Below are positions 7,298-60,979 of a DNA stretch of 64,000 nucleotides, one piece after another. The DNA is taken from assembly GCA_937124585.1 (NCBI GenBank), contig CAKZKT010000014.1:7393-71392 (forward strand), given 5' to 3'. The translations under genes and the position numbers were made by a program. The DNA comes from an uncultured Anaerolineae bacterium. Lineage in GTDB: Bacteria; Chloroflexota; Anaerolineae; CG2-30-64-16. A model generated the notes under the pieces. The model ran no database searches, was not told the origin of the DNA, and saw only the letters and a program-made list of their open reading frames with translations. Every line of letters starts with the position of its first letter. Position 1 is the stretch's first letter.

Positions 7298-7406
7298 GCA
7301 TTGCGACGCCAGCCTGTGCGCCAACCGGCGAGGCCGCGCGAGGGTCAGCCTGGCCGACAGGCGAGCGAAGAACAGCCACAGCCCAGGATCTTTCGTCGAA
7401 CTCACC

Positions 7407-8312: not shown

Positions 8313-8323
8313 GCGGCTGCCAG

Positions 8324-8357
8324 ACGTGACGGGCACCCGAAAGAGTGTCCGGCACGT
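8324..8357. repeat. Divergent REP-like palindrome copy
   Basis: ACGTGACGGGCAC-ccgaaaga-GTGTCCGGCACGT, imperfect hairpin downstream of the thioesterase. Confidence 0.55.
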
Positions 8358-8376
8358 AGATACGGAGGAGTGAGAC

Positions 8377-8778: not shown

Positions 8779-8787
8779 GAGGGACAG

Positions 8788-9159: not shown

Positions 9160-9204
9160 GCCGGCCGCGGCATTTTTCCATAGGCGAAAAATCGAGTTTC
9201 GCGG

Positions 9205-9233
9205 TTGACTTGCCGGACGATTTGTGGTATAAC
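9205..9233 (+). promoter_or_regulatory. Strong sigma70 promoter for the DksA/TraR-like gene
   Basis: TTGACT-N17-TATAAC with extended TG at 9225-9226. Confidence 0.75.
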
Positions 9234-9310
9234 ATACCGACCTCGAAACGGCTGCAACAACGAGGCTCTGGCAAGAGTGCCGTACAGTGTTTGGATCAGG
9301 AGTTGGAGAA

Positions 9311-9697
9311 ATGCCCACACGGGAACAGATCGTCGCCCGAGAGCGCCGCAAACTGCTCGAAGAACGCGCCCGGCTGACCGGAGAACTGGAGCGTTTGCGC
9401 GAAGCCCTCAAAATTGAAGTGGATGTGGATGCCGAGGAAGGAGATCCCGATCTGATCGAGCGCGAGAAAAACGTCGCCCTGGTCAGCCAACTCGAACGCA
9501 AGATGGATGATGTCGAAGCAGCGCTGCGCCTGATCGAAAAAGGCAAATACGGCATCTGTGAACGTTGTGGCAAGGAAATTCCCACCGAGCGTCTCGAAGT
9601 GCGACCGGATGCGACCCTGTGTGTCCAGTGTCAGGTTGAGGTCGAAAAGCTTATCAAGCGGGGGCTGTTGGCGAAGGCAGCCCAAGAGATCCAATAG
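9311..9697 (+). CDS. TraR/DksA-family C4 zinc-finger protein
   Basis: Coiled coil followed by [31 protein letters not shown]; SD upstream of the ATG at 9311. Confidence 0.88.
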
Positions 9698-13265: not shown

Positions 13266-13298
13266 GCGAGCGGCTGCAACGAGCACGCTGTGCCCAGT

Positions 13299-13327
13299 TT
13301 GGCCTCCGTCGGGCTGTGTGGTATACT
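13299..13327 (+). promoter_or_regulatory. Promoter of tRNA-Lys
   Basis: TTGGCC-N17-TATACT, 10 nt upstream of the tRNA. Confidence 0.55.
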
Positions 13328-13337
13328 ATAAATGTTC

Positions 13338-13410
<73 letters not shown>

Positions 13411-13412
13411 TT

Positions 13413-13446
13413 GCAGGACGGGCCGGCGACCCGTCCTGCGTGTTTA
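13413..13446 (+). terminator. Terminator hairpin after tRNA-Lys
   Basis: GCAGGACGGG-ccggcga-CCCGTCCTGC followed by gtgttt. Confidence 0.7.
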
Positions 13447-13543
13447 TCCGCAGTGACGCCGCAACCGGCAGGGATGTTTTCTCCCCTTTCTTCCCCAGAA
13501 CGCTGCCCATGATCTCCCCACCGATGATGCTGTGCGACACGAC

Positions 13544-13572
13544 TTGGAAGTCACCACAGCTTTACGTATAAT
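13544..13572 (+). promoter_or_regulatory. Promoter of the clostripain-family gene
   Basis: TTGGAA-N17-TATAAT. It abuts the ATG at 13573, which favours the ATG at 13600 with SD GAGAGGA. Confidence 0.55.
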
Positions 13573-13599
13573 ATGGCAGCAACTTCGAGAGAGGACTTC

Positions 13600-45610: not shown

Positions 45611-47068
45611 ATGAATGCAGAGAGACAGATCAACCTTCGACCGACCGGCCCACGCTCGCCGCTGTTGCCGGGCCTTTTGCTCGGCCTGCTTTTGACGTTG
45701 TTCATCGTGCTTTTCGTCTATGTGGCGGCCTTGTTCGTCTCGTTGGGACAGCAGGCAATCGCCGAGAGCCCGACCCAGCCGCCGTTGGCACTGCCACGGC
45801 TGGTGCGGCTGGCGCCGGTTTTCGAGCAAAATGAAGGCGCCGTTGCCGGCGTGGCGATCACACAACCCACGGGCCGGCGGTCACAGGAAGCGACGCCGGT
45901 GCTCACCGGCCGCCTAACCGTGCTGGTGATGGGTGTGGACAATCGCCCCGACGAGCCGGTGGCGCGCACCGATTCGATCATCGTGCTGACCCTGAACCCG
46001 AAGACCGGCGCCGCGGGCATGCTCTCGATCCCACGCGATGTCCTGGTCTACGTGCCGGCGCTGAACGATACCATCAAGATCAACAGCGTGCATGTCTACG
46101 GCGAAATCAACAAATTCCCTGGTGGCGGCCCGGAATTGCTCCGCCAGACCGTCGCCGAGCTGATCGGCTATCCGATTGACTATTACGTGCGCATCAATTT
46201 CGATGGCTTCCGACAGATCATTGACCTGGTCGGCGGCATCGAGATCGAGGTGGCCAAAGATATCAAGGATGACCTCTATCCTGACGAGAATTACGGCTAC
46301 GACCCCCTCTTCATCCCAGCCGGTCGGCATCACATGGACGGCGCGCTGGCGCTGAAATATGCGCGCACCCGCCACGTGGATTCCGACTACGGCCGCGCGG
46401 CCCGTCAGCAACAGGTCATCATGGCATTGAAGAATAAGCTGACGCAGCCGGGCCAGCTGGCCGGATTGCTGCCCAGGCTTCCCGGCCTGGCGTTCGCCCT
46501 GGCCAACTCGATCCAGACCGATATGCCGATCGAAAAGGCGATTGCGCTGGCGCGCACCGTGGATCAGGTGGACTTAAAAAATCCGACCCGCATCGTCATA
46601 GACAACACCATGGGCACAGACGGCATGGACTCGCGGTGGGGCTATGTGCTGCGGCCCGACATGAACAAACTGCGGGCAGCGACAGCGGCCGTCTTCGCCG
46701 ATCTCTCCGCTGATGTTTCTCCTGCCGAAGCAATGCGGCAAACGATTCAGGACGAAAATCCGCGTGTGATGGTGCTCAACGGGACGCCGGAAGCGGGCCT
46801 GGGCGCCAGTGTGGCCGACGCGCTGGCCGCAGCCGGTTACACGATCGTAAACATCGGCAATGCCGACCGGGGCGATTACACCCAAACCGTGCTGATCACT
46901 CATGGCGATGGCAAAACGGTGAGCCGCGAAGAGCTGGTGCGTCGGTTCAGCCTGATGCCGGCGCAAATCCGCTCCGAACCCCCTTCAGACGCCGTAGACC
47001 TCACCCTGATCCTGGGTGCCGATCAAATCAAGGCCAGCGCGTCCGGAGGCGCCGACCAGAGGCCTTGA
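45611..47068 (+). CDS. LCP (LytR-CpsA-Psr) protein with LytR_C domain
   Basis: VMGVD, RTDSII, LSIPRD, KINS, ALKYARTR, DYGRAARQQ; C-terminal VMVLNGT...GNAD. Confidence 0.92.
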   Translation: MNAERQINLRPTGPRSPLLPGLLLGLLLTLFIVLFVYVAALFVSLGQQAIAESPTQPPLALPRLVRLAPVFEQNEGAVAGVAITQPTGRRSQEATPVLTGRLTVLVMGVDNRPDEPVARTDSIIVLTLNPKTGAAGMLSIPRDVLVYVPALNDTIKINSVHVYGEINKFPGGGPELLRQTVAELIGYPIDYYVRINFDGFRQIIDLVGGIEIEVAKDIKDDLYPDENYGYDPLFIPAGRHHMDGALALKYARTRHVDSDYGRAARQQQVIMALKNKLTQPGQLAGLLPRLPGLAFALANSIQTDMPIEKAIALARTVDQVDLKNPTRIVIDNTMGTDGMDSRWGYVLRPDMNKLRAATAAVFADLSADVSPAEAMRQTIQDENPRVMVLNGTPEAGLGASVADALAAAGYTIVNIGNADRGDYTQTVLITHGDGKTVSREELVRRFSLMPAQIRSEPPSDAVDLTLILGADQIKASASGGADQRP

Positions 47069-47167
47069 AGTTGCAGACGCGACGCCGCTGCGTCGGCCAC
47101 CACTGATCCCCCTCTGCCTGCCGTCTGCGCCCGCGCCGGTGCCGGCTAACCCGAAAATCACTGTCCA

Positions 47168-47201
47168 ACGTGCCAGGCATCTTGCAGAGTGCCTGGCACG
47201 T
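47168..47201. repeat. REP-like palindrome, reverse orientation of the 39548 copy
   Basis: ACGTGCCAGGCA-TCTTGCAGAG-TGCCTGGCACGT. Confidence 0.85.
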
Positions 47202-47377
47202 GGGCACAGCTCGTTTTCATGGCTTGTTGTGCCCCGGCAAGGACATGGACGCTGCTCCGCCAACGCCTCCCGTTGATATGACCCATGTCATTTGTCCCGG
47301 CCGGGATTCGTGATAAATTTAGCTTGGTTGCAACAAAACAGCGCAGTCTGACAAGACCCGAACGGGAGCCCTGGAAG

Positions 47378-47755
47378 ATGGCCAAAATCCTCATCGTGGA
47401 TGATGATCCCGATTTCATTGAAATGACCTCTGTGGTTTTGGAGCGCGCCGGCCATCAGGTGGTGGAGGCAGCCAACGGCGAAGAGGGATTTGCACGCGCC
47501 AAACAGGAGAAACCGGACCTTGTGATCCTGGATGTGATCATGGATACCGTGCTGGAGGGGGTTACGATCAGCCAGCGCATGCACGAAGATCCTGAGCTGC
47601 GGAATCTGCCTGTCATCATGGTCACGTCCATTGCCAACACGGATTATGCCGAGCTTTTCCCGACCGACGAGTACATCCACATTGATGCGTTCATGAGCAA
47701 ACCCATCACCCCCGCTGCACTCCTGCGCCAGGTGGATCGGCTACTGGCCGGTTAG
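47378..47755 (+). CDS. Single-domain response regulator
   Basis: KILIVDDD, LVILDVIM, MVTS, FMSKP; no output domain. Confidence 0.9.
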   Translation: MAKILIVDDDPDFIEMTSVVLERAGHQVVEAANGEEGFARAKQEKPDLVILDVIMDTVLEGVTISQRMHEDPELRNLPVIMVTSIANTDYAELFPTDEYIHIDAFMSKPITPAALLRQVDRLLAG

Positions 47756-47781
47756 GGCGAACGAACTGCGATATTATCACC

Positions 47782-49785
47782 ATGTGGGACGCAGCCAGGA
47801 GAGCCGTGCGAAGATTCTTTGGCGCACCGTTTCAACTGGTGCTGGTGATCGCGTTCTCGCTGGTTGCAGCGACCACGATCCTCGTCGGCACCGGTGTGAT
47901 CTCGCGCACCATTCGCGACTACCTGTCCGTTACCATGGCCGAGCGGGTCGCACGCGACATGCACCTGGCGCAGGCACTTTACCAAAGCTGGCTCACCGAC
48001 ATCGCCGAAATGACCCATCACGTGACGTTGAGCCCCGCCGTCATCCAGCACTGCGCCGCGGCCGGCAGGGGTGAAAGCCAGGCCCTGGACATCATCGAGC
48101 AAGAGGTCGCCAGGGTGATCCGCGCCGAGAGATTCCCGGGCAACCACCTGGTCGCCATCCTCGATGCCGAGGGCAGCTTCGTCACCGGCCATTGGGTGCC
48201 GACGGGCGGCGCGCCGACGCTGCTACGCAACGCAGGCGACTGGACGGGATTGCCGTCAATAAAGACGGTTTGGGACGGCAACGCCGGGGTTGCAACCACA
48301 GAGGTGATCCCCTACGAAGTCCTCTCCTCTGTGGGCCTTGCGGAACAGGCCTATATCCCGTTGCTCGAAACCCCCAGGGCAGCCGATGTTCCTTTCGATC
48401 CGCGCGAAGGCCGCGCCGGACTGGCCCTGGTCAGCGTGATGCCCATCCGCCAGGACGACGGCACTCGCGTGGGCCTGGCCCTGGCTTTTCATCTCTTCAA
48501 CAACGATTTCACCCTGGTGGATCAGATCAAAGAGGTGGCGGCTGTTGATACGGCCACGATCTTCCTGGGCGACCTGCGCGTCTCGACCAACGTGCGCGGC
48601 CTGGACGGCGAACGGGCGATCGGCACTCGCCTCTCCAAAGAGGTGAGCCAGGTCGTGCTGGAACAGGGAAACCCCTACATAGGCCCGGCTTTCGTGGTTC
48701 AGGAAAACTACATCACCCGTTACGAGCCGTTGCGCAACCATGCGGGGCAGGTGATCGGGATTTTGTACGTCGGCGCGCGCGAAGCCAGGTTCGCCCGTCT
48801 GGTCAACAGCTTCAACGAAAGGGTGGCCCTGGTGGCGCTGGGCTCCATCCTGGCGACCTTCTTGCTGGCAGTGCCCGTCTCACGCGTTGTGACCCGTCCC
48901 CTGCAGGAGCTGCGGGAGCTGGCCAAGGCCAATCGGCGCGTGGCGCGCGGGGACTTGACGGTGCGCGTGCCCGTCCGGGCCGGCGGCGATGTGGGGGAGC
49001 TGGCCAGTTCGTTCAACGCCATGTTGGATCAGTTGCAGAGCACCCAGGATCAGCTGGTGCACTCGGAGAAGCTGGCCTCTTTGGGCCAGCTGGCGGCCGG
49101 CGTTGCTCATGAGCTGAACAACCCGTTGGCCACCGTCCTGCTGTTTTCGGATATCTTGCTGCGGGAATGCGGGCCGGACGATCCGCAGCGCTCCGACCTG
49201 GAGATGATCGCCAGCGAAACCCGCCGCTGCAAAGGGATCGTCGCGGCGTTACTGGACTTCGCGCGCCAGAACCAGGTCATGGCCCAGGCCACAAACCTGA
49301 ACGCGATTGTGCAACAGGTGCTCCAAATCGAAACCAAGCGCTTGGGAGATGTCCCCATCACCTTCATCGCCGAGCTGGATCCGCAACTGCCCACTATCGA
49401 AGCGGACCCGGCCCAGCTGCAGGAGGTGGTCGCCAATCTGGTCACCAACGCGATCGAGGCCATGCCCTCGGGAGGCAAGCTCACGGTGCGCACCCGGCCG
49501 GGCCCTGAAGGCATGGTGACTATGACCGTGACCGACACCGGCGTGGGCATCACGCCGGAGGATCAAGCCAAGTTGTTCGTCCCGTTCTTTACGACCAAAC
49601 CGGTGGGAAAGGGCACCGGCCTGGGCCTGGCGATCGTTTATGGCATCGTCAAGATGCACCGCGGCCAGATCACCGTGCAAAGTCAGCAGGGCAAAGGCAC
49701 AACCTTTACCGTCACGTTGCCGGTGCGCCTGCTGCCCGGTGACAATTCCAGCATTAACTCGAGAAAAGACAGCGCATTTATATGA
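47782..49785 (+). CDS. Membrane sensor histidine kinase (Cache-HAMP-HisKA-HATPase, NtrB-like)
   Basis: ATIFLGDLRVSTNV Cache segment, HAMP, EKLASLGQLAAGVAHELNNP, NAIEAM, DTGVG, FFTTK, GTGLGL. Confidence 0.92.
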   Translation: MWDAARRAVRRFFGAPFQLVLVIAFSLVAATTILVGTGVISRTIRDYLSVTMAERVARDMHLAQALYQSWLTDIAEMTHHVTLSPAVIQHCAAAGRGESQALDIIEQEVARVIRAERFPGNHLVAILDAEGSFVTGHWVPTGGAPTLLRNAGDWTGLPSIKTVWDGNAGVATTEVIPYEVLSSVGLAEQAYIPLLETPRAADVPFDPREGRAGLALVSVMPIRQDDGTRVGLALAFHLFNNDFTLVDQIKEVAAVDTATIFLGDLRVSTNVRGLDGERAIGTRLSKEVSQVVLEQGNPYIGPAFVVQENYITRYEPLRNHAGQVIGILYVGAREARFARLVNSFNERVALVALGSILATFLLAVPVSRVVTRPLQELRELAKANRRVARGDLTVRVPVRAGGDVGELASSFNAMLDQLQSTQDQLVHSEKLASLGQLAAGVAHELNNPLATVLLFSDILLRECGPDDPQRSDLEMIASETRRCKGIVAALLDFARQNQVMAQATNLNAIVQQVLQIETKRLGDVPITFIAELDPQLPTIEADPAQLQEVVANLVTNAIEAMPSGGKLTVRTRPGPEGMVTMTVTDTGVGITPEDQAKLFVPFFTTKPVGKGTGLGLAIVYGIVKMHRGQITVQSQQGKGTTFTVTLPVRLLPGDNSSINSRKDSAFI

Positions 49786-51743
49786 AGCTACAGACCAAAT
49801 TCGCACTGGCCGTAATTATCCTTTTCGCGCTATTAGCCGCCGCCATGGCCGTGTTGAGCGCCACCCTGGTCAACCGCTACACCATTCGCGAGGCCGAGAA
49901 CCGCGTCCGCATCTACATGCGCGCGGCGTGGGAGATCCACGACAGCAAAATCGGCCGAACCCGGGCGGCGCTGGAAGTGCTGGCGCGTGATCCCGTGGTA
50001 GTGAACTTCTTGGCCGCCGGCGCCCCGGAGGCGATGACAGTCCAACTGCGGGACACGCTGGAGGCGATCCGCCGCGACCAGAAGATGGACATCCTGAACG
50101 TCCTGTCCCCCGAAGGCCGCGTCCTGATGCGCACGCGCGCGCCCTACAACAAAGGCGACAGCCTGATACAAGACCCGTTGATCAAGCAGGCTGCCGCCCT
50201 GCGGGAAAGCGTCACGGGGAACATCATCATGGAACAGGACCGGCTGGACATCGAGGGCAGCGAACTGATCGAACGGTGTCTGGCGGTAGGCAATGAGCCC
50301 CGTGGGCTGTTCGGCGGCGCGGCCGTGCCCGTCCTGGATGCGAACGACCGCCTGGTCGGCTTCATCGAGATGGGCTCGCTCCTGAACGGCGCTACCGAAA
50401 AGGTGGACGCCATCCGCAATGCGGTCTTCGCCAACGAGATCTACAACGGGAAGCCGGTGGGCACGGCCACCATCTTCATGGGGGACCTGCGGGTCTCGAC
50501 CAATGTGCTGGACAACCAGGGCCGCCGCGCCGTCGGCACGCGTGTCTCCAAAGAGGTGGCCGACCGCGTGCTGGGGGAAGGCCTCTCGTGGACCGGACGC
50601 GCGTTCGTGGTGGACACCTGGTATCTCGCCCAATACGATCCGATCCGGAATCCCGATGGCAAAGTCGTCGGCATGCTGTATGTCGGCGAACTGGAACAAA
50701 AATACCTGGACCTGCGCGCGCGGACTGTGGCGCTGAACCTGACGGTGATCCTGGCCGGCATGCTGCTCTCCTTCGTGGGTGCCCTGGGGCTGGTGAGAAA
50801 CATCGTCAAGCCGATCCGGGCCCTGGCAGGCGCCACCCAACGCCTGGCCGCCGGTGACTTCAGCTACCGCGTCGATATCAGACGCTCCGATGAGCTGGGC
50901 GACCTGGCCTCCTGCTTCAACAAGATGGCCGACCGGTTGGAGCAGCAACGCCAGGAACTGGAGACCCGCCAAAGAGAGCTGGAGGCGGTAAGCCAGCAGT
51001 TGCAAACCACCAACCGGAACTACATCGAGATGCTGGGCTTCGTCACCCACGAGCTGAAGAACCCGCTCACGTCGGCCATCATGGGGCTCTACACCGTCAA
51101 AGACGGCTACCTGGGCGAACTGAACCCGGCCCAAAAGAAGAGTCTGGAGACGGTCGCCCGGAGCCTGGACTATTTCCAGGACATGGTGCGCAACTACCTG
51201 GACCTGTCTCGGCTGGAGCAAGGTGAACTGAAGGTGACGAAACGCCGCCTGGAGCTGCGGAAAGCGGTGGTGGAACCTGCGCTGGAGAGCCTGGAGCGCC
51301 AGCTGCAGGAACGCCGGATGGCCTTAGACAACCGCATCTCGCCGGCGCTGATCGTCAACGCCGACCCGACGCTCATCCGCATCGTGTACGACGACCTGCT
51401 CTCCAACGCGGTGAAATATGGCCGGGAAGGAGGCACCATCCTGCTGGAGGCAGAGGAAAGCGACGACGGCGTGACCCTGAGCGTGCGCAACGACGGCGAG
51501 GGCATACCGGCCGAGAAGAAATCGCAGCTCTTCCAGCGCTTCAGCCGGCTCGACACGCCCAGCGCCACAGGCAAAAAGGGCACGGGCCTGGGATTGTACA
51601 TCTGCAAAGAGATTGTCGAGAAACACGGCGGCAAGATCTGGGCCGATTCCAAATCGGGGGAATGGGTGAAGTTCAGCTTCACCCTCCCAAACGGCATTCA
51701 CAACACCCAACCCAAAGGGGGGACACGAGACACGCATGTTTAG
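49782..51743 (+). CDS. Second membrane sensor histidine kinase (Cache-HAMP-HisKA-HATPase)
   Basis: ATIFMGDLRVSTNV, HAMP, VTHELKNP, SNAVKY, NDGEGI, GTGLGL; ATGA overlap with the first kinase. Confidence 0.92.
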   Translation: MKLQTKFALAVIILFALLAAAMAVLSATLVNRYTIREAENRVRIYMRAAWEIHDSKIGRTRAALEVLARDPVVVNFLAAGAPEAMTVQLRDTLEAIRRDQKMDILNVLSPEGRVLMRTRAPYNKGDSLIQDPLIKQAAALRESVTGNIIMEQDRLDIEGSELIERCLAVGNEPRGLFGGAAVPVLDANDRLVGFIEMGSLLNGATEKVDAIRNAVFANEIYNGKPVGTATIFMGDLRVSTNVLDNQGRRAVGTRVSKEVADRVLGEGLSWTGRAFVVDTWYLAQYDPIRNPDGKVVGMLYVGELEQKYLDLRARTVALNLTVILAGMLLSFVGALGLVRNIVKPIRALAGATQRLAAGDFSYRVDIRRSDELGDLASCFNKMADRLEQQRQELETRQRELEAVSQQLQTTNRNYIEMLGFVTHELKNPLTSAIMGLYTVKDGYLGELNPAQKKSLETVARSLDYFQDMVRNYLDLSRLEQGELKVTKRRLELRKAVVEPALESLERQLQERRMALDNRISPALIVNADPTLIRIVYDDLLSNAVKYGREGGTILLEAEESDDGVTLSVRNDGEGIPAEKKSQLFQRFSRLDTPSATGKKGTGLGLYICKEIVEKHGGKIWADSKSGEWVKFSFTLPNGIHNTQPKGGTRDTHV

Positions 51744-51768
51744 CGTTATGGCTAAGGGAGGCCAGACG

Positions 51769-52185
51769 ATGACCCGCAAACAACGCATCCTCGTCGTGGA
51801 CGATGACGTCCAGGTGGTGGACGCCATGGAAACCTTGTTGCAAGGTGTAGGATACGAGACCTTGCATGCTTACCGGGCCGAAGATGGAATCGAGCTGGCC
51901 CGGCAGGCCAAACCGGATTTGATGCTGCTCGATGTCATGTTCGCGGGGCCGCCCGGCCCGGACGGGTTCGAGACGGCCCGCACCATGCGCGGGGACCCGG
52001 AACTTCGAGACATCCCCATCATCATCCTGTCCGGGATCAAGACCGTGCTGGGGATCAGCTACGACGTGGCTCCAGACGAGACGTGGATGCCCGTCAAAGC
52101 GTTCCTGGAGAAGCCGGTGCGGCCTGACAGGCTGTTGAAAGAGATCGAGAAGATCCTCGGACCGCGTGAAAAGGCAGTCGCATAA
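51769..52185 (+). CDS. Single-domain response regulator
   Basis: ILVVDDD, LMLLDVM, ILSG, FLEKP; SD AAGGGAGG. Confidence 0.88.
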   Translation: MTRKQRILVVDDDVQVVDAMETLLQGVGYETLHAYRAEDGIELARQAKPDLMLLDVMFAGPPGPDGFETARTMRGDPELRDIPIIILSGIKTVLGISYDVAPDETWMPVKAFLEKPVRPDRLLKEIEKILGPREKAVA

Positions 52186-52188
52186 CCC

Positions 52189-54429
52189 ATGACAACGCGC
52201 GGCAAGGTCCTGGTCATTGATGATGAACTGGGCATTCGCGAGGGCTGCAAGCGGGCCCTGACCTCCCAGGGCTTCACGGTTGATGTGGCGCAGGACGGCC
52301 TTGACGGGCTGGCAAAGATCAAGGCCAACGGCTACGACGTGATTCTGCTGGACATCATGATGCCGGGGATCGGGGGCATCGAACTGCTGAGCCTGATCCG
52401 CGAGCACGACCCGGAGGCGGTCTGCATCATCATCACCGGTTACGGCACCGTGCAGGTGGCGGTGAACGCCATCAAACGCGGGGCCTATGACTTCCTTACC
52501 AAGCCGTTCACCGTGGACGACCTGCTGTTGGCGGTCAGCCATGGGCTGGAGCACCGGCGCCTGTTGTTGGAAGAGCAGCGGCTGAAGGCGCTAGAGGCCG
52601 AAACGCAGCAACTGGCTTACGAGAAACGCAAACTGGAGGAGGTGGAAAAAGCCAAGGCAACCTTCATCCGTCTGGTCACCCACGAGCTGCAAGCACCCAT
52701 CGCAGCCATCCAGGGCTATCTGCAGTTGATCCTGGACGGCTACGTTGAGCCCGAGAAACAACGGGAGGTGCTGGAAAAGGCGTCGGCGCGCGCCCAGGAG
52801 CAGATGGCGTTGATCGCCGACCTGCTGACCCTCAGCAAATTGCGCGATGCCCGCCAGCGCGAACAGGCTACCGAAGTGCGGCTGGACGAGCTGCTGCGCC
52901 AGGTGCTCGAGCCGTTTCAAGCGCAAGCCGTCGAAAAGGGCGTGTTGTTGCGCGCGAACATCGAGGGAGAAATCCCGGCCGTGCGTGGCATTGCCGGTGA
53001 GTTCAAGAGCCTCTTTGCGAACTTGATCAGCAACGCCATCAAATACACGCCGGCGGGCGGTTCCGTGGCAGTCAGCCTGCGCACGGATGACGGCAAGGTC
53101 ATCGGCTGCGTCAGCGACACCGGCATCGGCATCCCTCCCGAGGCGCGCGATCGCCTCTTCTCCGAATTCTTTCGAGCCGACAACGCCAAGGCCATGGCGT
53201 TGCGCGGCACGGGGCTGGGCCTGGTGATCGTCAAGCAGGCGGTGGAAAACGCCGGTGGACAGATTTGGGTCGAGTCAGAGCTTAACCGCGGGACAACTTT
53301 CACTTTTACCATACCGACAATGGCCGTCGCTGAAGAGCGACCAGAGCCCGTGAGTATTGAACCAAAGAAAGGAGGTCGGATGAGCCTAAGAATCATCGAA
53401 AAAAGCGCGCTGCCCGCGTTCGTTGCCGGCATCATGCGCGAGTACGAGGTGGTGGGGCCCCAGACCAAAGAGATATTGCCCAACGGCAAGAGCCAGTTCG
53501 TGTTCGGCCCCCTCACCAATCCCCATCAATTGCGGTTGGATTACGACACCACCGTTCTGCCGCCCAAGAAGTACCTTTTGCCCCAAGAAGAGGTGCTGTT
53601 CACCTTCGACACAGGAAGCCTCGCCGCCACGCCCCGCTTCGACACGCAGCCGCGTGTGCTGTTCGGCGTTCACACCTGCGATATCCACGCCTTGGCCCTG
53701 CTGGACGCCGTCTTTGCCACCGGCCAGCGCGATGAGCACTACCTCAAGCGGCGAGCCTCGACCCTGATCGTCGGCATCGAGTGCCTGGCGCCGTGCGATG
53801 AACACAGCTTCTGCAAGAGCATGGGCACCCTGACGGCGGATAAAGGATTCGACCTGCACCTCATTGACCTGGGGCAACGCTACGCCGTAGAGGTGGGCAC
53901 CGCGGCCGGCGAGGCGCTGCTGGCCAGACACGCGGCCGCGCGCATGGCCGATGAAAGTGACATCGAACTGCTGAACCGGGTGCTTTCGGAGAAATGGCCG
54001 CGCTTCCCCTATCGGCTCGATTTCGACGGCAGCGAATTGCCCAACCTGATGGCGCTGAGCTACAAAGACCCGCTCTGGGAGGAACTAGGTCAACGTTGTC
54101 TGTCATGCGCGGCGTGCAACCTGGTGTGCCCCACCTGCTATTGCTTCAACGTCGTTGACCAGGTGACGCTGGACCGGAAAAACGGCGAGCGGATACGGAA
54201 ATGGGATAGCTGTCAATTGGATGAATTCGCCCGCGTCGCCACCGGTGAAAACTTCCGACACAAGCGCTCACAACGCCAGCGTCACCGCTTCTTCCGCAAA
54301 GGCAAGTACATCCCGGAGATGCACGGCGAGCTGGGCTGTGTGGGCTGTGGCCGCTGTGCGCGCGCTTGCCTGGTAGACATCACCCCGGTCGGCGTCTGGA
54401 ACAAGTTGTACCAGGCGCACGCGAGCTAG
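52189..54429 (+). CDS. In-frame fusion: hybrid REC-HisKA-HATPase kinase plus sulfhydrogenase beta (HydB/AsrA-like) Fe-S subunit
   Basis: aa 1-~385 carry VLVIDDE, LLDIMMP, FLTKP, VTHELQAP, SNAIKY, DTGIG and GTGLGL. From aa 398 come PPKKYL, GVHTCD, CLSCAACNLVCPTCYC and CVGCGRCARAC. No stop codon lies between them. Confidence 0.88.
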   Translation: MTTRGKVLVIDDELGIREGCKRALTSQGFTVDVAQDGLDGLAKIKANGYDVILLDIMMPGIGGIELLSLIREHDPEAVCIIITGYGTVQVAVNAIKRGAYDFLTKPFTVDDLLLAVSHGLEHRRLLLEEQRLKALEAETQQLAYEKRKLEEVEKAKATFIRLVTHELQAPIAAIQGYLQLILDGYVEPEKQREVLEKASARAQEQMALIADLLTLSKLRDARQREQATEVRLDELLRQVLEPFQAQAVEKGVLLRANIEGEIPAVRGIAGEFKSLFANLISNAIKYTPAGGSVAVSLRTDDGKVIGCVSDTGIGIPPEARDRLFSEFFRADNAKAMALRGTGLGLVIVKQAVENAGGQIWVESELNRGTTFTFTIPTMAVAEERPEPVSIEPKKGGRMSLRIIEKSALPAFVAGIMREYEVVGPQTKEILPNGKSQFVFGPLTNPHQLRLDYDTTVLPPKKYLLPQEEVLFTFDTGSLAATPRFDTQPRVLFGVHTCDIHALALLDAVFATGQRDEHYLKRRASTLIVGIECLAPCDEHSFCKSMGTLTADKGFDLHLIDLGQRYAVEVGTAAGEALLARHAAARMADESDIELLNRVLSEKWPRFPYRLDFDGSELPNLMALSYKDPLWEELGQRCLSCAACNLVCPTCYCFNVVDQVTLDRKNGERIRKWDSCQLDEFARVATGENFRHKRSQRQRHRFFRKGKYIPEMHGELGCVGCGRCARACLVDITPVGVWNKLYQAHAS
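53380..54429 (+). CDS. hydB: Group 3b hydrogenase beta subunit translated from an internal start
   Basis: SD AAAGGAGG directly precedes the in-frame ATG at 53380 (MSLRIIEK). Confidence 0.65.
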   Translation: MSLRIIEKSALPAFVAGIMREYEVVGPQTKEILPNGKSQFVFGPLTNPHQLRLDYDTTVLPPKKYLLPQEEVLFTFDTGSLAATPRFDTQPRVLFGVHTCDIHALALLDAVFATGQRDEHYLKRRASTLIVGIECLAPCDEHSFCKSMGTLTADKGFDLHLIDLGQRYAVEVGTAAGEALLARHAAARMADESDIELLNRVLSEKWPRFPYRLDFDGSELPNLMALSYKDPLWEELGQRCLSCAACNLVCPTCYCFNVVDQVTLDRKNGERIRKWDSCQLDEFARVATGENFRHKRSQRQRHRFFRKGKYIPEMHGELGCVGCGRCARACLVDITPVGVWNKLYQAHAS

Positions 54430-54438
54430 GAGGCTGTT

Positions 54439-55275
54439 ATGGCAATACCGACAGTCGGTTCAATCTACGTTCCCAGCCCGGCGCGCATTGCCAAAGTGCA
54501 GCAGCTGACCGCGCTGGAGAAGCTGTTTACCATTGAGCTGCCCTGGGGCCAAAGCCTGGGACATGAGCCGGGCCAATTCGTCGAGGTGAGCATCTTCGGC
54601 GTCGGTGAGGCGCCCATCTCCATCAGTTCGTCCCCCAGCCGAAGCAACGGCACCTTCGAGCTTTGCGTGCGCAAGGTGGGCGACGTCACCGCGGCCATGC
54701 ACAAGCTGGAGGTCGGCGCCAGCATCGGCGTGCGCGGCCCGTTCGGCCACGGCTTCCAAATCGAGAAGATGCGCGGCAAAGATATCCTGTTCGCACCCGG
54801 CGGCCTGGGGCTGGCGCCTGCGCGCAGTTTGATCAACCAGGTCTTGGACGAGCGCGGCTCCTTCGGCCGCGTCATCATCCTGTACGGCGCCAAGAACCCC
54901 TCTGAACTGCTGTTCAAGGACGAATTGGAGGCATGGAGCAAGCGGCCGGATGTGGAGTTCCATGTGACCGTGGATCGGCCCGACTCGACCTGGAACGGCA
55001 ACGTCGGGGTGATCACTACCCTGTTCAAGAAGATCCATGTAAACCCGCGCAACACCGTGGCGGTAACCGTTGGCCCGCCCATCATGTACCGCTTCGTGTT
55101 GATGGAACTGCTGGGCAAGGGCATCCCGGAGACCCAGATCTGGATGTCCCTGGAACGGCGGATGAAATGCGGTGTCGGGAAATGCGGTCACTGTCAGATC
55201 AACAACCTGTACTGCTGCCAGCAAGGCCCGGCCTTCACTTACGCCCAGATCAAAGGCGTCGAGGAGGCGATTTGA
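54439..55275 (+). CDS. hydG: Group 3b hydrogenase gamma subunit (FAD/NAD(P), 2Fe-2S)
   Basis: PGQFVEV, GEAPISISS, RGPFG, GGLGLAP, LERRMKCGVGKCGHC, CCQQGP. Confidence 0.9.
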   Translation: MAIPTVGSIYVPSPARIAKVQQLTALEKLFTIELPWGQSLGHEPGQFVEVSIFGVGEAPISISSSPSRSNGTFELCVRKVGDVTAAMHKLEVGASIGVRGPFGHGFQIEKMRGKDILFAPGGLGLAPARSLINQVLDERGSFGRVIILYGAKNPSELLFKDELEAWSKRPDVEFHVTVDRPDSTWNGNVGVITTLFKKIHVNPRNTVAVTVGPPIMYRFVLMELLGKGIPETQIWMSLERRMKCGVGKCGHCQINNLYCCQQGPAFTYAQIKGVEEAI

Positions 55276-56021
55276 TGAAACCCAAAGTGGCTTTCTTCGA
55301 CTTCACCAGTTGCGAAGGCTGCCAGCTCACGGTGGTGGACAGCCTGCAAACGCATACCGAGCTCCTCGATGCGGTCGAGATCGTACAATTTCGTGAGGCG
55401 ATGACCGAAAAGGGCGAGGACTACGCGGTGGCCTTTGTGGAGGGCTCCATCAGCCGGCCCAGTGACGAGCCGCGGCTGAAGCGCATTCGCGAGCAAGCCG
55501 CGGTGCTGGTCGCCCTGGGTGCCTGCGCGCACCTGGGCGGCATCAACGCGATCCGCAACGCCATGCCGCTGGACGACGTGCGCCGCTACGTGTACGGCGA
55601 CAAGGCCGACTGGTACGAAACCTACCCGGCCCGGCCGATCAGCGCCGTCGTGCCGGTAGACGCCGTGATCCCTGGCTGCCCCATTGACCGCAACGAATTC
55701 CTGGAGGTGGTCAAGGCGCTGTTGTTGGGCAAAAAGCCGCCGCTGCCCGATTATCCCCTGTGTGTGGAATGCAAGCTCAAGGAACACACCTGTCTGTTTC
55801 ATAAGGGCGGCTATTGCCTGGGGCCGGTAACGCGCGCGGGCTGCGGCGCCATTTGTCCCACCTATGGCGACGGTTGCGAAGGCTGCCGAGGCCTGATCCC
55901 TGACCCGAACCGCAACGCCATGAGCGAGGTCTTGTTGGAACACGGCCTGACCGTAGATGCGATGCTGGCGCGCTGGACGATGTTTGGGACGTATCAGCAG
56001 ATGGAAACGGGGAAAAAATAG
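55275..56021 (+). CDS. hydD: Group 3b [NiFe]-hydrogenase small (delta) subunit
   Basis: FTSCEGCQ, VEGS, ALGACA, IPGCP, LCVEC, CLGPVTRAGC...CP...CEGCRG. Confidence 0.92.
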   Translation: MKPKVAFFDFTSCEGCQLTVVDSLQTHTELLDAVEIVQFREAMTEKGEDYAVAFVEGSISRPSDEPRLKRIREQAAVLVALGACAHLGGINAIRNAMPLDDVRRYVYGDKADWYETYPARPISAVVPVDAVIPGCPIDRNEFLEVVKALLLGKKPPLPDYPLCVECKLKEHTCLFHKGGYCLGPVTRAGCGAICPTYGDGCEGCRGLIPDPNRNAMSEVLLEHGLTVDAMLARWTMFGTYQQMETGKK

Positions 56022-56122
56022 AAGCTGGAAGTGAGCAGGCAGAAAGCCCAAGATGATGGTTTCTGGTTGGCCGTCAGTCGTCGGGCACCGGTCGCCCGCT
56101 TCCGGCCACCGGCTTCCGGTTA
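56022..56122. repeat. Degenerate heptamer-periodic intergenic stretch
   Basis: aagctgg aagtgag caggcag aaagccc ... ccggtcg cccgctt ccggcca ccggctt ccggtta. Confidence 0.45.
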
Positions 56123-56137
56123 AGGAGAGGATGATTT

Positions 56138-57427
56138 ATGGCAAATGTCAACATAGAAGTTCATCACGTCACCCGTGTCGAGGGGCATGGGAACATCGTG
56201 GTCAATGCCAAAAACGGCGTGCTGGAGGAATGCCGGCTGGAGATCGTGGAGACCCCGCGCTTCTTCGAAGCGATGTTGCGCGGCCGGCCATACACGCAGT
56301 CCAGCCATATCACCAGCCGGATCTGCGGCATCTGCGCCGTGGGCCATGCCACGGCCAGCCTGCGCGCCACCGAGAACGCGCTGGGCATCGAGCCGTCGGA
56401 GCAGACGGTGTTGCTCCGCAAGCTGAACTTCCACGGCGAGATCATTGACAGCCATGTGCTGCACGTGTACATGCTGGTCGCGCCCGACATGTTCGGCGTT
56501 GGCTCAGTGATCCCCCTGGTGAAGACGGCGCCCGATGTGGTATTGCGCGCGCTGCGCATCAAGAAGCTTTCCGGCGACCTGTGCGCAACCATCGGCGGCC
56601 GCCACACCCATCCGATCGCCATGGCCGTGGGCGGCTTTACCCATTACCCCACCGTGGCCGAGCTGAAGGCGCTGCGCCAGCGGCTGGTGGACGCCCGGGC
56701 CGACATGGACGAGACGGTCAAGCTGGCGAAAACGCTGCCCTGGCCGCAGTTCAACCGCGAGACCGAATACGTGGCGCTGCGCAAAGAGGACGAGTACGCT
56801 TTCATTGACGGCACCATCACCACGACCGACGGCGGAAAGTATCCAGTGAAGGACTACCGCAAAGTCACCAACGAACGCATGGTGCCGCACTCCACCGCCA
56901 AGTACACCGCGCACAAGCGTGAATCGTACATGGTGGGCGCGCTGGCGCGCTTCAACGTCAATTACGACAAGCTGCACCCGCGCGCTCAGGCCGCGGCCGA
57001 GGAACTGGGCCTGAAGCCGATCTGCACCAACCCATACCTGAACACGGCGGCCCAGGTGGTGGAGATGGTGCACAGCGTCGAAGATTCCATCCGCATCATT
57101 GACGAGCTGTTGGTGCGGGGCATCCATCCGGAACCGCTGCCGCCGTTCCCCGGCCGGGGCGGCGAGGGGGTCGGCTCCTGCGAGGTGCCGCGCGGGATCC
57201 TCTTCCACAACTATCAGATCGGCGAGAACGGCTTGGTAAAGAACGCCAACTGCATCATCCCCACAGGGCAAAACCTGGCGAACATCGAAGCGGACATGCG
57301 CAAACTGGTGCCGGAGATCCTCGATCGGCCCCAGGACGAAATCCGACTGATGCTGGAGATGCTGGTGCGCGCGTACGACCCGTGCATCTCGTGCTCGGTG
57401 CACTTTCTGGAGGTGAAGTTTGTTTGA
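56138..57427 (+). CDS. hydA: Group 3b [NiFe]-hydrogenase large (alpha) subunit
   Basis: TRVEGHG, L1 SRICGICAVGH, EVPRG, L2 YDPCISCSVH, followed by a 7-aa cleavable tail. Confidence 0.95.
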   Translation: MANVNIEVHHVTRVEGHGNIVVNAKNGVLEECRLEIVETPRFFEAMLRGRPYTQSSHITSRICGICAVGHATASLRATENALGIEPSEQTVLLRKLNFHGEIIDSHVLHVYMLVAPDMFGVGSVIPLVKTAPDVVLRALRIKKLSGDLCATIGGRHTHPIAMAVGGFTHYPTVAELKALRQRLVDARADMDETVKLAKTLPWPQFNRETEYVALRKEDEYAFIDGTITTTDGGKYPVKDYRKVTNERMVPHSTAKYTAHKRESYMVGALARFNVNYDKLHPRAQAAAEELGLKPICTNPYLNTAAQVVEMVHSVEDSIRIIDELLVRGIHPEPLPPFPGRGGEGVGSCEVPRGILFHNYQIGENGLVKNANCIIPTGQNLANIEADMRKLVPEILDRPQDEIRLMLEMLVRAYDPCISCSVHFLEVKFV

Positions 57428-58397
57428 CGACGGACGAAAGACGAAGGACGAAGGACGAAAGACGGACGAAACCGTTGATCATTCGTCATTCGTCATTCGT
57501 CCGGTCTTGGTCCTGGGCCTCGGCAACCCGCTGCAAGGGGATGATGGCGTCGGTTGCCGGGCCATCGAGGCGTTGCAGCAGTACACGCTGCCGGAGACGG
57601 TCGAAACCCTGGACGGCGGCACCCCCGGCATCGGGTTGTTGCACCTGCTGGAGGGGCGGCGGCGTGCCATTCTGGTGGACGCGGCCGAGATGGGCCAGCC
57701 GGCCGGCACCATCGTCCGGTTTCGAGCCGCAGACGTAACCCTGGCCGGCGCCGCAGAACGCCTCTCGCTCCACCGGACAGCGGTAGCCGATGCGCTGGCG
57801 CTGGCAGAGGCGCTGACGCTGTCGCTGCCGGACATCGTGTTTTTCGGGGTGCAGCCGGAACGTGTCGGCTGGGGCCAGGACCTGAGCCCCAAAGTCGCGG
57901 CCGCCGTACCACAGGTGGTACAGGCGATCTTGCATGAGATCTCTCACGATCCAAAGGAAGGGATACACATGCCCACGAAAAAAGAGGCTCCTGAAACCAA
58001 AGGCCTGATCTTGATCGTTGACGACGATCCAGACATGGTAGAAGCTTTGCGCATGCCGCTCGAGGCCCACCGCTACTCCGTAGCCCATGCTGCCAGCGGT
58101 CGTCTGGCCCTGAAGATGATCCCGGAGCTGCGACCCGACCTCATCATCCTGGACGTGATGATGGAAACGACCACCGAAGGTTTCCAGGTGTCCCTCGCGC
58201 TGCGCAGCCCCGACCCGCGCTCCGAATACGCGGCCTACAAAGACATCCCCATCCTAATGCTGACCTCGATCCACTCGACCACGCCGTTGCGCTTCGGGCC
58301 GGATCAGGACTACCTGCCGGTGGACGAGTTCATAGACAAGCCGGTGGACCCAGACAAGTTGGTTGCCAAAATCAACGCATTACTGGCCCGCAAGTAG
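57420..58397 (+). CDS. In-frame fusion: hydrogenase maturation protease plus receiver domain
   Basis: GLGNPLQGDDGVG, LDGGT, ILVDA, SLH, then from the ATG at 57969 (SD AAGGAAGG) LILIVDDD, IILDVMME, MLTS, FIDKP. No stop codon lies between them. Confidence 0.85.
   Translation: MFDDGRKTKDEGRKTDETVDHSSFVIRPVLVLGLGNPLQGDDGVGCRAIEALQQYTLPETVETLDGGTPGIGLLHLLEGRRRAILVDAAEMGQPAGTIVRFRAADVTLAGAAERLSLHRTAVADALALAEALTLSLPDIVFFGVQPERVGWGQDLSPKVAAAVPQVVQAILHEISHDPKEGIHMPTKKEAPETKGLILIVDDDPDMVEALRMPLEAHRYSVAHAASGRLALKMIPELRPDLIILDVMMETTTEGFQVSLALRSPDPRSEYAAYKDIPILMLTSIHSTTPLRFGPDQDYLPVDEFIDKPVDPDKLVAKINALLARK
57424..57501. repeat. Heptamer tandem/inverted repeat inside the protease 5' end
   Basis: GACGAA(A/G) repeated about five times, then TTCGTC(A) three times; the arms are complementary. 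Confidence 0.85.
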
Positions 58398-58412
58398 CGC
58401 CGCTCGGATACA

Positions 58413-58447
58413 CAGATGCCAGGCGCAGCCTGAACGCCTGGCATCTG
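58413..58447 (+). terminator. Hairpin closing the hydrogenase unit, related to the REP family
   Basis: CAGATGCCAGGCG-cagcctgaa-CGCCTGGCATCTG. Confidence 0.65.
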
Positions 58448-58568
58448 ATTAACCGGGACTATGACAGGCATCATTGCCGGGCCGACCGCTTTATGCTTTA
58501 AGAACGCTGAGCTTTCTATTCGACTCGCCAGCTATCTGGCTTTGCCAGCCATATTGAGGCGTTGAAGC

Positions 58569-59039
58569 ATGCTTGATATGACAACAAACTTCGACCTGGC
58601 GCCGTTGCATGCGATCCTGGAAGAGTATGGCAGTCAAAAAGGCACCGTCATCCCCATCCTGCAGCGGGTGCAGGACGCGTACGGTTACCTGCCGAAGGAA
58701 ATCCTGGCCGAAATATCGAAGCGGACCAACATCCCCCTCACCCAGCTCATGGGAGTAGCGACCTTCTACACCCAGTTCCGCTTGAGCCCGCGGGGTAAGC
58801 ATCTTATTCGGGTATGCGACGGAACGGCTTGTCATGTAAGTGGAGCGCCCCACATTGTAAGGGCTATCGAAAAGGAATACGATATGCCGGCCGGATCTTC
58901 CTCGCCTGATCTTAAGTATACGCTCGAGGTTGTATATTGCGTGGGCGCATGTGGACTGGCTCCGGTCGTCATCGTGGATGACAAGGTGTATGGGAGGCTC
59001 TCTCCCGATGCTGTCCTGGAAAAAGTGCGTGATGTCTGA
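58569..59039 (+). CDS. NuoE/HydC-like 2Fe-2S subunit
   Basis: IPILQRVQDAYGYLP, ATFYTQF, VCDGTACH, CVGACGLAP. Confidence 0.92.
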   Translation: MLDMTTNFDLAPLHAILEEYGSQKGTVIPILQRVQDAYGYLPKEILAEISKRTNIPLTQLMGVATFYTQFRLSPRGKHLIRVCDGTACHVSGAPHIVRAIEKEYDMPAGSSSPDLKYTLEVVYCVGACGLAPVVIVDDKVYGRLSPDAVLEKVRDV

Positions 59040-59065
59040 TAAGGCAACCCGGCAGGAGGCGCGAG

Positions 59066-60979
59066 ATGTCCTTATTGAAATCCACTGATGATCTGCTGAG
59101 CCTGCGCGAGAGGGCAATATACGCTTTAGGGGTCCGTGTGCCGGGCGCGTCCCAACCTCAGTTTCGCAACGACGTAGTCGTTTGTGGCAGCACAGGCTGT
59201 CGGTCGGCCAATTCCCAGCAGGTTCTGAAAGCGCTACAGGCTCAGATCATCCAGAGGGAGTTGGACAAGGCTGTACGCGTGATTTCTACTGGTTGCCGCG
59301 GTTTATGTGCCGTGGGACCGGTGATGCAGATTTTCCCCTCCGGTGTGTTCTACAACCGCGTCCAGATTACGGACGTGCCAGAAATTGTCGAACAGACGCT
59401 GGTCGGGGGCAAGATCATCGAAAGGCTTTGTTTCCGTGATGTGGCGCAGAACAAAAGGCTCGCGCATTATCTGGACATTCCGTTTTATAACCGACAACTG
59501 CCCATTGTCCTACGCAACTGCGGCTTGATTGATCCGCAAAACATAGAGGAATACATCGCCACTGATGGCTACTTGGGATTGACTAAAGCATTAGAGCTAT
59601 CACCCGAGGAGGTCATCGAGATCATCAAAAATTCAGGCTTGCGTGGGCGTGGCGGAGCCGGCTTTTCCACAGGCATTAAATGGGAGCTTTGTCGGCGGGT
59701 CGCAAAACAACCGAAGTACGTGATTTGCAACGCGGATGAAGGTGATCCTGGCGCGTTCATGGACCGTTCCATCCTGGAAGCTGACCCGCACAGCGTGATC
59801 GAAGGGATGGTAATTGCAGCCTATGCGATTGGAGCGCCGCTAGGATACATCTATGTACGTGCTGAATACCCGTTGGCTGTGATTCACCTCCGAAGAGCTA
59901 TCGCCCAAGCGCGGGCGTACGGCCTACTGGGCGAAAATATCCTGGGCAGCGGCTTCTCCTTTGACCTGCACCTGAAGGAGGGGGCGGGCGCGTTCGTGTG
60001 CGGCGAGGAGATGGCACTCATCGCCTCCGTCGAAGGCCGCCGCGGAGAGCCGCGGCCCAAACCACCCTTCCCGGCCGTCTCCGGCCTCTGGAACCGGCCA
60101 ACGGTCGTCAACAACGTCAAAACCTACGCCCTGACGCCCCGGATCATCCTGAGGGGGCCAGAGTGGTTCTCGAGCATCGGCACGTCCAAATCGCCGGGCA
60201 CCGCCGTGTTCGCCTTGACCGGAAAGATCAGAAACACCGGCCTGATCGAAGTGCCCATGGGCATCACCCTGCGCGAGATCATCTACGACATTGGCGGCGG
60301 CATCCCCAAGAAGCGCCAGTTCAAGGCCGTCCAAACCGGCGGCCCGTTGGGCGGATGCCTGCCCGCCTCGGCGCTAGACACGCCGGTGGATTTCGATTCC
60401 CTCACCGAAGCCGGCGCCACCATGGGCTCGGGGGGCATGATCGTGGTTGACGAGCGCACCTGTATGGTTGAATTCGCCAAATACTTCCTGACCTTCGCTA
60501 CTGCCGAATCGTGTGGCAAGTGCGTGCCGTGCCGCATCGGCGGCCAGCGACTGCTGGAAGTGCTCACCCGCATCACCTCAGGCGCAGGCACCCCGCGCGA
60601 TTTGGACGAGATTGAACGCATCTCCCGCAACATGCGCGAGGCGTCGCTCTGTGCGCTGGGCCAGCTGACACCCGGCCCGGTCATGTCGGCGCTGCGCTTC
60701 TTCCGTGAGGAGTACGAGGCGCATGTCTACGACAAATTCTGTCTGGCCGGCGTCTGCAAAGGGCTCTATGAGCTGCACGTGGACGCCGACAGATGCGCGG
60801 GATGCGGCTTGTGCAAGAAGGCCTGTTCACAAGACGCGATCAGCGGCAACCGCAAGGAACCGCATGTCATTGACCAGCTCAAATGCATCCAGTGCGGCGC
60901 TTGTGTCGAGGCGTGCAACCTGGATGCCATCGTAGCTCAGCCGCGAGGAAAAGGCGTACATGCCATTGCGGTGGCTTAG
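59066..60979 (+). CDS. NuoF/HydB(BfuB)-like FMN/NADH subunit with extra Fe-S domains
   Basis: N-terminal CGSTGC...GCRGLC, GLRGRGGAGF, NADEGDPGAFMDR, FVCGEE, GGPLGG, ESCGKCVPCR, SLCALG, H-x5-C-x4-C, and a C-terminal 2x[4Fe-4S]. Confidence 0.93.
   Translation: MSLLKSTDDLLSLRERAIYALGVRVPGASQPQFRNDVVVCGSTGCRSANSQQVLKALQAQIIQRELDKAVRVISTGCRGLCAVGPVMQIFPSGVFYNRVQITDVPEIVEQTLVGGKIIERLCFRDVAQNKRLAHYLDIPFYNRQLPIVLRNCGLIDPQNIEEYIATDGYLGLTKALELSPEEVIEIIKNSGLRGRGGAGFSTGIKWELCRRVAKQPKYVICNADEGDPGAFMDRSILEADPHSVIEGMVIAAYAIGAPLGYIYVRAEYPLAVIHLRRAIAQARAYGLLGENILGSGFSFDLHLKEGAGAFVCGEEMALIASVEGRRGEPRPKPPFPAVSGLWNRPTVVNNVKTYALTPRIILRGPEWFSSIGTSKSPGTAVFALTGKIRNTGLIEVPMGITLREIIYDIGGGIPKKRQFKAVQTGGPLGGCLPASALDTPVDFDSLTEAGATMGSGGMIVVDERTCMVEFAKYFLTFATAESCGKCVPCRIGGQRLLEVLTRITSGAGTPRDLDEIERISRNMREASLCALGQLTPGPVMSALRFFREEYEAHVYDKFCLAGVCKGLYELHVDADRCAGCGLCKKACSQDAISGNRKEPHVIDQLKCIQCGACVEACNLDAIVAQPRGKGVHAIAVA

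Follow-up and report, generated by a model that had tools for sequence, protein, structure and literature searches.

The group 3b hydrogenases, NAD(P)-linked H2 enzymes of wide distribution, are known to be regulated transcriptionally, and two-component signalling usually terminates at a DNA-binding regulator. The present analysis concerns a single open reading frame (ORF) at 52189-54429 of a 64,000-nucleotide stretch of contig CAKZKT010000014.1 from an uncultured Anaerolineae bacterium (the whole stretch is called the window below). This ORF joins a histidine kinase controlled by a receiver (REC) domain to HydB, the Fe-S beta subunit of a group 3b [NiFe]-hydrogenase.

The closest described relative of the kinase half is LvrB, the prototype Rec-controlled kinase, in which phosphorylation of Rec leads to the alphaS coiled coil and frees the catalytic domain (CA) for autophosphorylation (PMC13269768). 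The fusion has the same domain order over its N-terminal 377 amino acids (aa), with a phospho-acceptor Asp, a long alphaS running into the DHp domain, a complete CA and a similarly placed catalytic histidine (H165 here, H161 in LvrB). Sequence identity is only ~24%, however, and LvrB stops after CA and signals to an anti-sigma factor, whereas the fusion continues into a complete hydrogenase beta subunit. The closest relatives of that subunit are HydB/ShyB of the Pyrococcus furiosus hydrogenases SHI and SHII (PDB 9nez, 9nf0), which align over nearly their full length and share the conserved cluster cysteines; in both cases the gamma-, delta- and alpha-subunit genes and a maturation protease gene come next. 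The archaeal beta subunit differs in being free-standing and devoid of any signalling domain.

Kinase-linked sensory hydrogenases are established for [NiFe] group 2b (HupUV/HoxBC with HupT/HoxJ) and putative for [FeFe] group C1, the hydrogenase being functionally coupled to a histidine kinase in both (HydDB, PMC5037454). In group 2b a separate kinase binds a dedicated regulatory hydrogenase; here, in contrast, the hydrogenase is of the metabolic group 3b type, with a C-terminal tail and its own protease, and the kinase, with a receiver as predicted input, forms one covalent chain with the electron-transfer subunit. The parts are all known (Rec-controlled kinase, group 3b hydrogenase, the concept of a kinase-linked hydrogenase), but neither a covalent kinase::HydB protein nor a REC::HydB family was found described. 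No account of a kinase-HydB, REC::HydB or REC::HydB::HydG fusion was found in the literature searched, and to that extent the statement in the initial annotation that no kinase of this architecture has been described held. Public records label such fusions only as "4Fe-4S dicluster domain-containing protein" or "sulfhydrogenase subunit beta".

Anatomy of the fused reading frame

The ORF remains open for 746 codons without a stop. Its features are as follows.

52189..54429, + strand: fused ORF, Rec-controlled histidine kinase joined to HydB, 746 aa; its own start has a weak Shine-Dalgarno sequence (SD)
52207..52536, + strand: REC, aa 7-116 (Pfam, E 1.3e-30), phospho-acceptor D55
52513..52866, + strand: alphaS signalling helix into DHp, aa 109-226, with HisKA at aa 156-219 (Pfam) and phospho-histidine H165; from the AlphaFold2 (AF2) model and the Foldseek match to LvrB
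53002..53319, + strand: HATPase_c catalytic domain (CA), aa 272-377 (Pfam, E 2.9e-28), with N, G1 and G2 boxes
53320..53379, + strand: interdomain linker of 20 aa, aa 378-397, variable in length and sequence in the alignment
53369..53382, + strand: internal SD AAGGAGG (53369-53375), 4-nt spacer and in-frame ATG (53380)
53380..54429, + strand: HydB part, Fe-S beta subunit of a group 3b [NiFe]-hydrogenase, aa 398-746 (phmmer, Foldseek)

A single 746-aa frame with intact REC, H, N, G1 and G2 boxes that runs into a complete HydB had been proposed in the initial annotation, and the ORF itself, Pfam, NCBIfam and the residue alignment agree on it. The accompanying term "hybrid histidine kinase" was correct as to kinase but not as to the classical hybrid type. 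Because its sole REC (aa 7-116) lies N-terminal to HisKA, and no receiver follows CA as it would in a classical hybrid kinase, the protein is a Rec-controlled kinase (a "hybrid response regulator"). Apart from REC, no sensor domain was detected in the kinase half by Pfam.

The acidic pocket, phospho-acceptor Asp, Thr and Lys expected of a receiver are in place (D11, D12, D55, T83 and K105). D11, D12 and D55 are invariant across 19 fused homologues, and T83 and K105 are nearly invariant in a 66-sequence alignment. The phospho-histidine H165, the N box (N278/N282), the G1 box (D310/G312/G314) and the G2 box (G340/G342/G344) are invariant from Anaerolineae to Planctomycetota, as are the cluster cysteines C637, C640, C643, C647, C650, C652, C675, C717, C720, C723 and C727 of the HydB half.

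A single-chain AF2 model was built from the same 66-sequence alignment (mean predicted local distance difference test score (pLDDT) 87, predicted template modelling score (pTM) 0.51). In the model, one continuous helix (aa 109-182) leads from REC alpha5 into DHp, the linker is predicted to be disordered (aa 380-396, pLDDT <50), and HydB opens with a strand at aa 400. The N-terminal half matches LvrB (8vc9; Foldseek E 2.5e-23). The continuous REC-alphaS-DHp helix, the disordered and variable linker and the existence of sister REC::HydB fusions together point to the kinase's own REC as its input, with HydB carried on a predicted flexible tether and not on a signalling helix.

The HydB part is closest to the beta subunit of P. 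furiosus SHI (phmmer E 7e-58 to 9nez_B, 32% identity, HydB-query residues 42-340). The C-terminal half of the model was matched by Foldseek to 9nf0_B/9nez_B with a target-normalised TM-score of 0.87, and the N-terminal HTCD and SFCK cysteines of the HydB part align with those of P. furiosus. Fer4_22 was found at aa 636-731 of the fusion (Pfam), and the NCBIfam ShyB/HydB/AsrA models cover aa 435-741. Scores against the ShyB/HydB models fall far under the equivalog cut-offs (221.6 bits against 690 and 204.5 against 750), so the protein is a bacterial homologue within the HydB/ShyB family and not an equivalog of the archaeal enzymes. Identity as AsrA (sulfite reductase) was rejected in view of the downstream genes, which encode [NiFe] small and large subunits. 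No other HydB homologue is encoded in the window's genome.

Conservation of the fusion and of an internal start

The fusion is neither recent nor confined to one assembly. A homologous-protein search returned three near-identical variants (P0001-P0003) on at least four different contigs, all with the same open frame. Beyond these, all four domains are present in more than 25 protein clusters of 742-785 aa from Anaerolineae (59-91% identity) and in five clusters from Phycisphaerae/Planctomycetota (38-39% identity). Within the family to which the window's genome belongs, hydB of this type is carried by 11 of the 37 species genomes, and the fusion is uninterrupted in nine of these 11 (one of the nine is cut by a contig end); the remaining two contain a decayed kinase (G013) and a standalone hydB (G014). 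Seven further fused loci were obtained from metagenomes, and no reversion by a new stop codon was seen among the nine fused family genomes. The same fusion is accordingly present across genera, phyla and independent assemblies, close orthologues are mostly fused rather than split, and the initial annotation's alternative of a recent stop loss or sequence error was rejected in favour of a conserved fusion under purifying selection.

Selection was estimated from 11 unique fused coding sequences with a mean proportion of synonymous differences (pS) of 0.5-0.6. The ratio of nonsynonymous to synonymous substitution (dN/dS) was 0.22 for REC, 0.22 for DHp, 0.22 for CA, 0.72 for the linker and 0.12 for HydB. 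Taken together with the invariant catalytic residues, these ratios indicate that the kinase half has been maintained as a kinase. By the same measure the linker (AVAEERPEPVSIEPKKGGR, aa 379-397) appears to be evolving almost freely outside its last codons.

Those last codons behave differently. The linker carries, as initially annotated, an SD ahead of the in-frame ATG, the spacing being 4 nt, and the out-of-frame TGA stops noted at 53351 (frame +1) and 53358 (frame +2) were both seen in the sequence. The final codons A-GGA-GGY-CGG-ATG are identical in 16/16 Met-bearing junction loci examined in the clade, which include 10 unique full-length coding sequences. This invariance holds despite a pS of 0.5-0.6; synonymous sites just downstream vary freely, and GGA accounts for only 2-10% of the Gly codons in these genes. 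Such synonymous-site invariance points to selection for an internal SD and start. Across the locus, strong SDs precede the internal hydB start, hydG, hydD and hydA, and weak SDs precede the signalling genes, including the fusion's own start. The standalone hydB orthologue of G014 starts from the same SD and ATG. In lineages with a CA deletion, a 279-aa REC-HisKA ORF overlaps hydB by ATGA, and the start of hydB is again the same SD/ATG site. The suggested additional synthesis of free HydB from the internal start thus gains support, though not proof, from the nucleotide invariance at 16 loci and the SD strengths within the operon; most HydB is likely to be free and only a minor fraction to carry the kinase, which is likewise unproven.

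The internal SD and start are absent from the Planctomycetota-type proteins and from the G011 protein, and two further proteins (P0027, P0028) lack a Met at the internal-start position in the protein alignment. Lineages without the internal start are, as predicted from their genes, obligate fusions. The Planctomycetota-type locus has in addition an intact hydGDA-hycI operon, so its fused protein must itself act as the beta subunit. Downstream of the G011 fusion (L028, 547-7602), which lacks the internal start, lie hydG and, immediately after it, nuoE- and nuoF-like genes; neither a small nor a large hydrogenase subunit is encoded close by.

Several minor observations concern the exceptions and the spread of the locus. 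The CA deletion spans about aa 233-362 (for example L031 of G013, 295-2162, and L126, 5291-7176), and Cache-kinase and REC gene fragments lie ~13 kb downstream in G013. At the standalone hydB locus of G014 (L032, 2759-3908), the large-subunit match shifts frame and lacks about aa 360-403, so that the gene may be broken or misassembled. The locus was found in only 8/17 genera. Fusions of the same genus (G001, G002) are 69% identical to that of the window, and the fusion of G016, from another genus, is 89% identical. This identity pattern and the patchy presence suggest lateral transfer of the whole locus or uneven taxonomy.

The hydrogenase operon, its signalling neighbours and related fusions

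The fused gene stands between two-component genes and the remaining hydrogenase genes.

47285..47755, + strand: REC0, single-domain receiver, apparently the first gene of the locus (tblastn REC similarity, conserved syntenic position)
47782..49785, + strand: sensor kinase 1 with sCache_3, HAMP, HisKA and HATPase_c (Pfam)
49782..51743, + strand: sensor kinase 2 with sCache_3, HAMP, HisKA and HATPase_c (Pfam, synteny)
51736..52185, + strand: RECa, single-domain receiver (Pfam, synteny); stop codon 3 nt ahead of the fusion start
54439..55275, + strand: HydG-like gamma subunit, FAD/NAD(P) binding and a 2Fe-2S site (Pfam, NCBIfam)
55275..56021, + strand: hydrogenase small (delta) subunit, HydD (Pfam Oxidored_q6); its start ATG overlaps the hydG stop by 1 nt
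56138..57427, + strand: [NiFe] large (alpha) subunit, HydA (top NCBIfam models ShyA and HydA)
57420..58397, + strand: HycI-type maturation protease with a C-terminal REC (Pfam, NCBIfam)

The order REC, Cache-HAMP-kinase, Cache-HAMP-kinase, REC, fusion, HydG, HydD, HydA, HycI and REC, NuoE, NuoF is kept in six complete syntenic loci, and in G017 it is divided between two contig fragments. Sensor kinase 1 is syntenic in G016, G010, G022, G001, G002, G004 and G017. Among the genomes compared, the HycI-REC fusion is confined to the subclade of the window, G016, G010 and G022; the two genes are adjacent but separate in G001, G013, G051, G048, G045 and the Planctomycetota-type locus. The latter locus shows no kinase in view other than the fused one, together with five other receiver-containing genes. 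No DNA-binding domain was found by Pfam in the receiver proteins of the locus, and a promoter/terminator scan of 46500-59200 gave site numbers no higher than those in shuffled sequence. For hydD, the ATG at 55275 (TGATG overlap at 55273-55277, preceded by AGGAGG) is a likelier start than the GTG at 55287.

In group 2b regulatory hydrogenases the large subunit lacks a cleavable C-terminal tail and no endopeptidase is needed. The present enzyme is not of this sensory type: HydA ends in DPCISCSVH followed by a 7-aa tail (FLEVKFV), a HycI-type protease gene is next to it, and the best models are those of group 3b.

Related proteins combine the same modules in other ways. Besides the kinase fusions, N-terminal fusions of HydB include REC::HydB, REC::HydB::HydG and HycI::HydB. 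The REC::HydB and REC::HydB::HydG proteins (Bipolaricaulota, Dehalococcoidales and metagenome proteins) resemble the present fusion in carrying a two-component domain N-terminally on the same subunit in the same operon type, but have no kinase core. REC::HydB protein P0052, for instance, corresponds to Rec-HK::HydB protein P0121 (HK, histidine kinase) minus the kinase core, with 56% identity in REC and 65% in HydB. In another hydBGDA operon, a six-transmembrane (PilS-like) HisKA-HATPase kinase is fused to HydB, and its linker again contains an internal AGGAGG and ATG.

In a tree of HydB, three separate clades with good support contain the kinase fusions, and the neighbours of each are standalone or differently fused. 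A single origin of all kinase::HydB fusions is accordingly unsupported; their strict independence is likewise unproven by the tree, the backbone of which is poorly separated.

Receivers are also found on other metabolic proteins in related loci around group 3b operons, namely FolD, a formate/nitrite transporter (FocA) and Pyr_redox_2, a pyridine-nucleotide oxidoreductase. REC::Pyr_redox_2, REC::HydB, REC::FolD (tetrahydrofolate dehydrogenase/cyclohydrolase) and REC::formate/nitrite transporter genes were located on L147 (ENA k141_187009; 6034-7923, 8001-9533 and 12463-13755) and L146 (8129-9487). In this predicted REC::enzyme layout, the enzyme occupies the position of a response-regulator effector domain, and the sister forms (REC::HydB, HycI-REC, REC::FolD) suggest that phosphorylation may act on the enzyme.

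Standalone Rec-HK relatives, 53-56% identical to the kinase half, adjoin soluble redox operons. A hox (group 3d-like) hydrogenase locus contains one of them, and two more are found immediately upstream of HdrC-HdrB-HdrA-MvhD-Fer4-HydB-like-HydG-like operons. In L148 (9001-17635) and L149 (9001-17900), a Rec-HK paralogue with 53% identity is the first gene of the Hdr/Mvh operon; L149 and the fused orthologue L118 belong to the same assembly (FWPV01).

Proposed relay and competing explanations

The fusion is a genuine, maintained one. It is probably best explained as an LvrB-type relay kinase tethered to HydB and switched by REC, with two products made and an output that falls post-translationally on the hydrogenase. 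In the proposed mechanism, the weak upstream start would yield a low-abundance 83-kDa kinase-HydB protein and the internal SD/ATG an abundant free 39-kDa HydB. The fusion kinase would form the middle tier of an operon-encoded phosphorelay, with the two Cache-HAMP sensor kinases as presumed upstream donors feeding the receiver domains. Phosphorylated REC of the fusion would switch on the kinase core, as in LvrB, and H165 would pass phosphate to the receiver-only proteins of the locus and to HycI-REC. Since no DNA-binding output was seen by Pfam in the receiver proteins, the relay seems to act post-translationally; from a kinase kept at the hydrogenase, it would target the enzyme and the maturation of that enzyme.

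Kinase and receiver domains sit on the electron-transfer subunit and, in part of the clade, on the maturation protease, and they recur in several phyla in at least three architectures. Were the relay to control the enzyme or its assembly post-translationally, the H2 metabolism of anaerobic Chloroflexota, Planctomycetota and others would be subject to a new control layer, and the system would provide a natural case of a Rec-controlled kinase scaffolded on the complex that it targets.

Several points weigh against the proposed relay. That the internal start is used and that the relay affects the enzyme are both inferences, and the direction of the signal and all phosphotransfer partners are read from anatomy and neighbourhood only. 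The residue at H+4 of the H box is Ala or Ser instead of Thr or Asn, which by comparison with HisKA kinases in general may hint at weak phosphatase activity. Real secondary splits through deletion of the CA domain (G013 and L125-L128) indicate that the kinase is dispensable in some lineages, and the 2.2 kb upstream of the standalone hydB of G014 contain no two-component genes. Because the 16 junction loci do not represent as many independent lineages, shared ancestry could partly explain the retention of the SD and ATG. Finally, the predicted disordered tether would be compatible with regulatory docking of HydB on the kinase, and a single-chain AF2 model is silent on interfaces.

The best-surviving alternative, possible although we consider it unlikely, is that of the initial annotation and places the hydrogenase upstream as the sensor. 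Here the tethered kinase would be gated by the HydB Fe-S clusters, whose redox state would depend on H2 and NAD(P)H via the assembled enzyme, and the kinase would report H2 or reductant status to the receivers of the locus and, for example, tune maturation via HycI-REC. Consistent with such a sensor, kinase and Fe-S subunit are covalently joined in three architectures, the standalone Rec-HK relatives occur directly upstream of HdrCBA-MvhD-HydB/G-like operons and at the hox group 3d locus, and the fused kinase is the only one in view in the Planctomycetota-type locus. Kinase-signalling hydrogenases also have precedent in [NiFe] group 2b and, putatively, [FeFe] C1 (PMC5037454). The layout of the protein argues the other way: HydB is placed C-terminal to CA on a disordered, length-variable and almost neutral linker with no signalling helix, and a canonical input, REC with alphaS, is already there. 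The sister proteins that drop the kinase core keep REC on HydB, which is a response-regulator layout with HydB as effector, and with the internal start in use most HydB would be free of the kinase.

An extended form of the sensor proposal, rather more doubtful, would make a metabolic group 3b hydrogenase the sensory module of its own phosphorelay, with the electron load of the HydB Fe-S clusters gating the kinase and the kinase controlling large-subunit maturation through the HycI receiver. This would close a post-translational feedback loop without a transcription factor and would form part of a wider, so far undescribed habit of placing REC on enzymes of H2, formate and C1 metabolism (REC::HydB, REC::FolD, REC::FocA).

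A tolerated accident, in which the stop between two neighbouring genes coupled in translation was lost, the internal start went on supplying HydB and the full-length product does no harm but has no function as a fusion, is regarded as improbable. It would account for the retained SD and ATG of a formerly separate gene and for the lineages that lost the kinase core and kept hydB, and only some members of the clade have a comparable stop-loss fusion of the neighbouring hycI and REC. It accords poorly with a fusion that spans phyla and has outlasted near-saturated synonymous divergence (pS 0.5-0.6) with no stop-codon reversion in the nine fused family genomes. Obligate fusions without an internal start exist as well, one of them in an intact operon, and on the HydB tree three supported clades hold kinase::HydB proteins, which carry two different input modules.

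An assembly or sequencing artefact, in the form of a missed stop or an indel in the linker, can practically be discounted: the window's genome is a draft assembly of 164 contigs, but the same open frame recurs in more than 30 distinct sequences (38-100% identity) from NCBI, JGI, ENA and Logan assemblies, and, with stops in both other frames of the linker, a single-base indel error there could not yield an open frame. The sole truncated relative checked (P0031, 552 aa) was rejected as a real split, as it lies among fragmented gene calls throughout a locus that looks frameshift-ridden; the overlapping next gene in that locus continues HydB-HydG.

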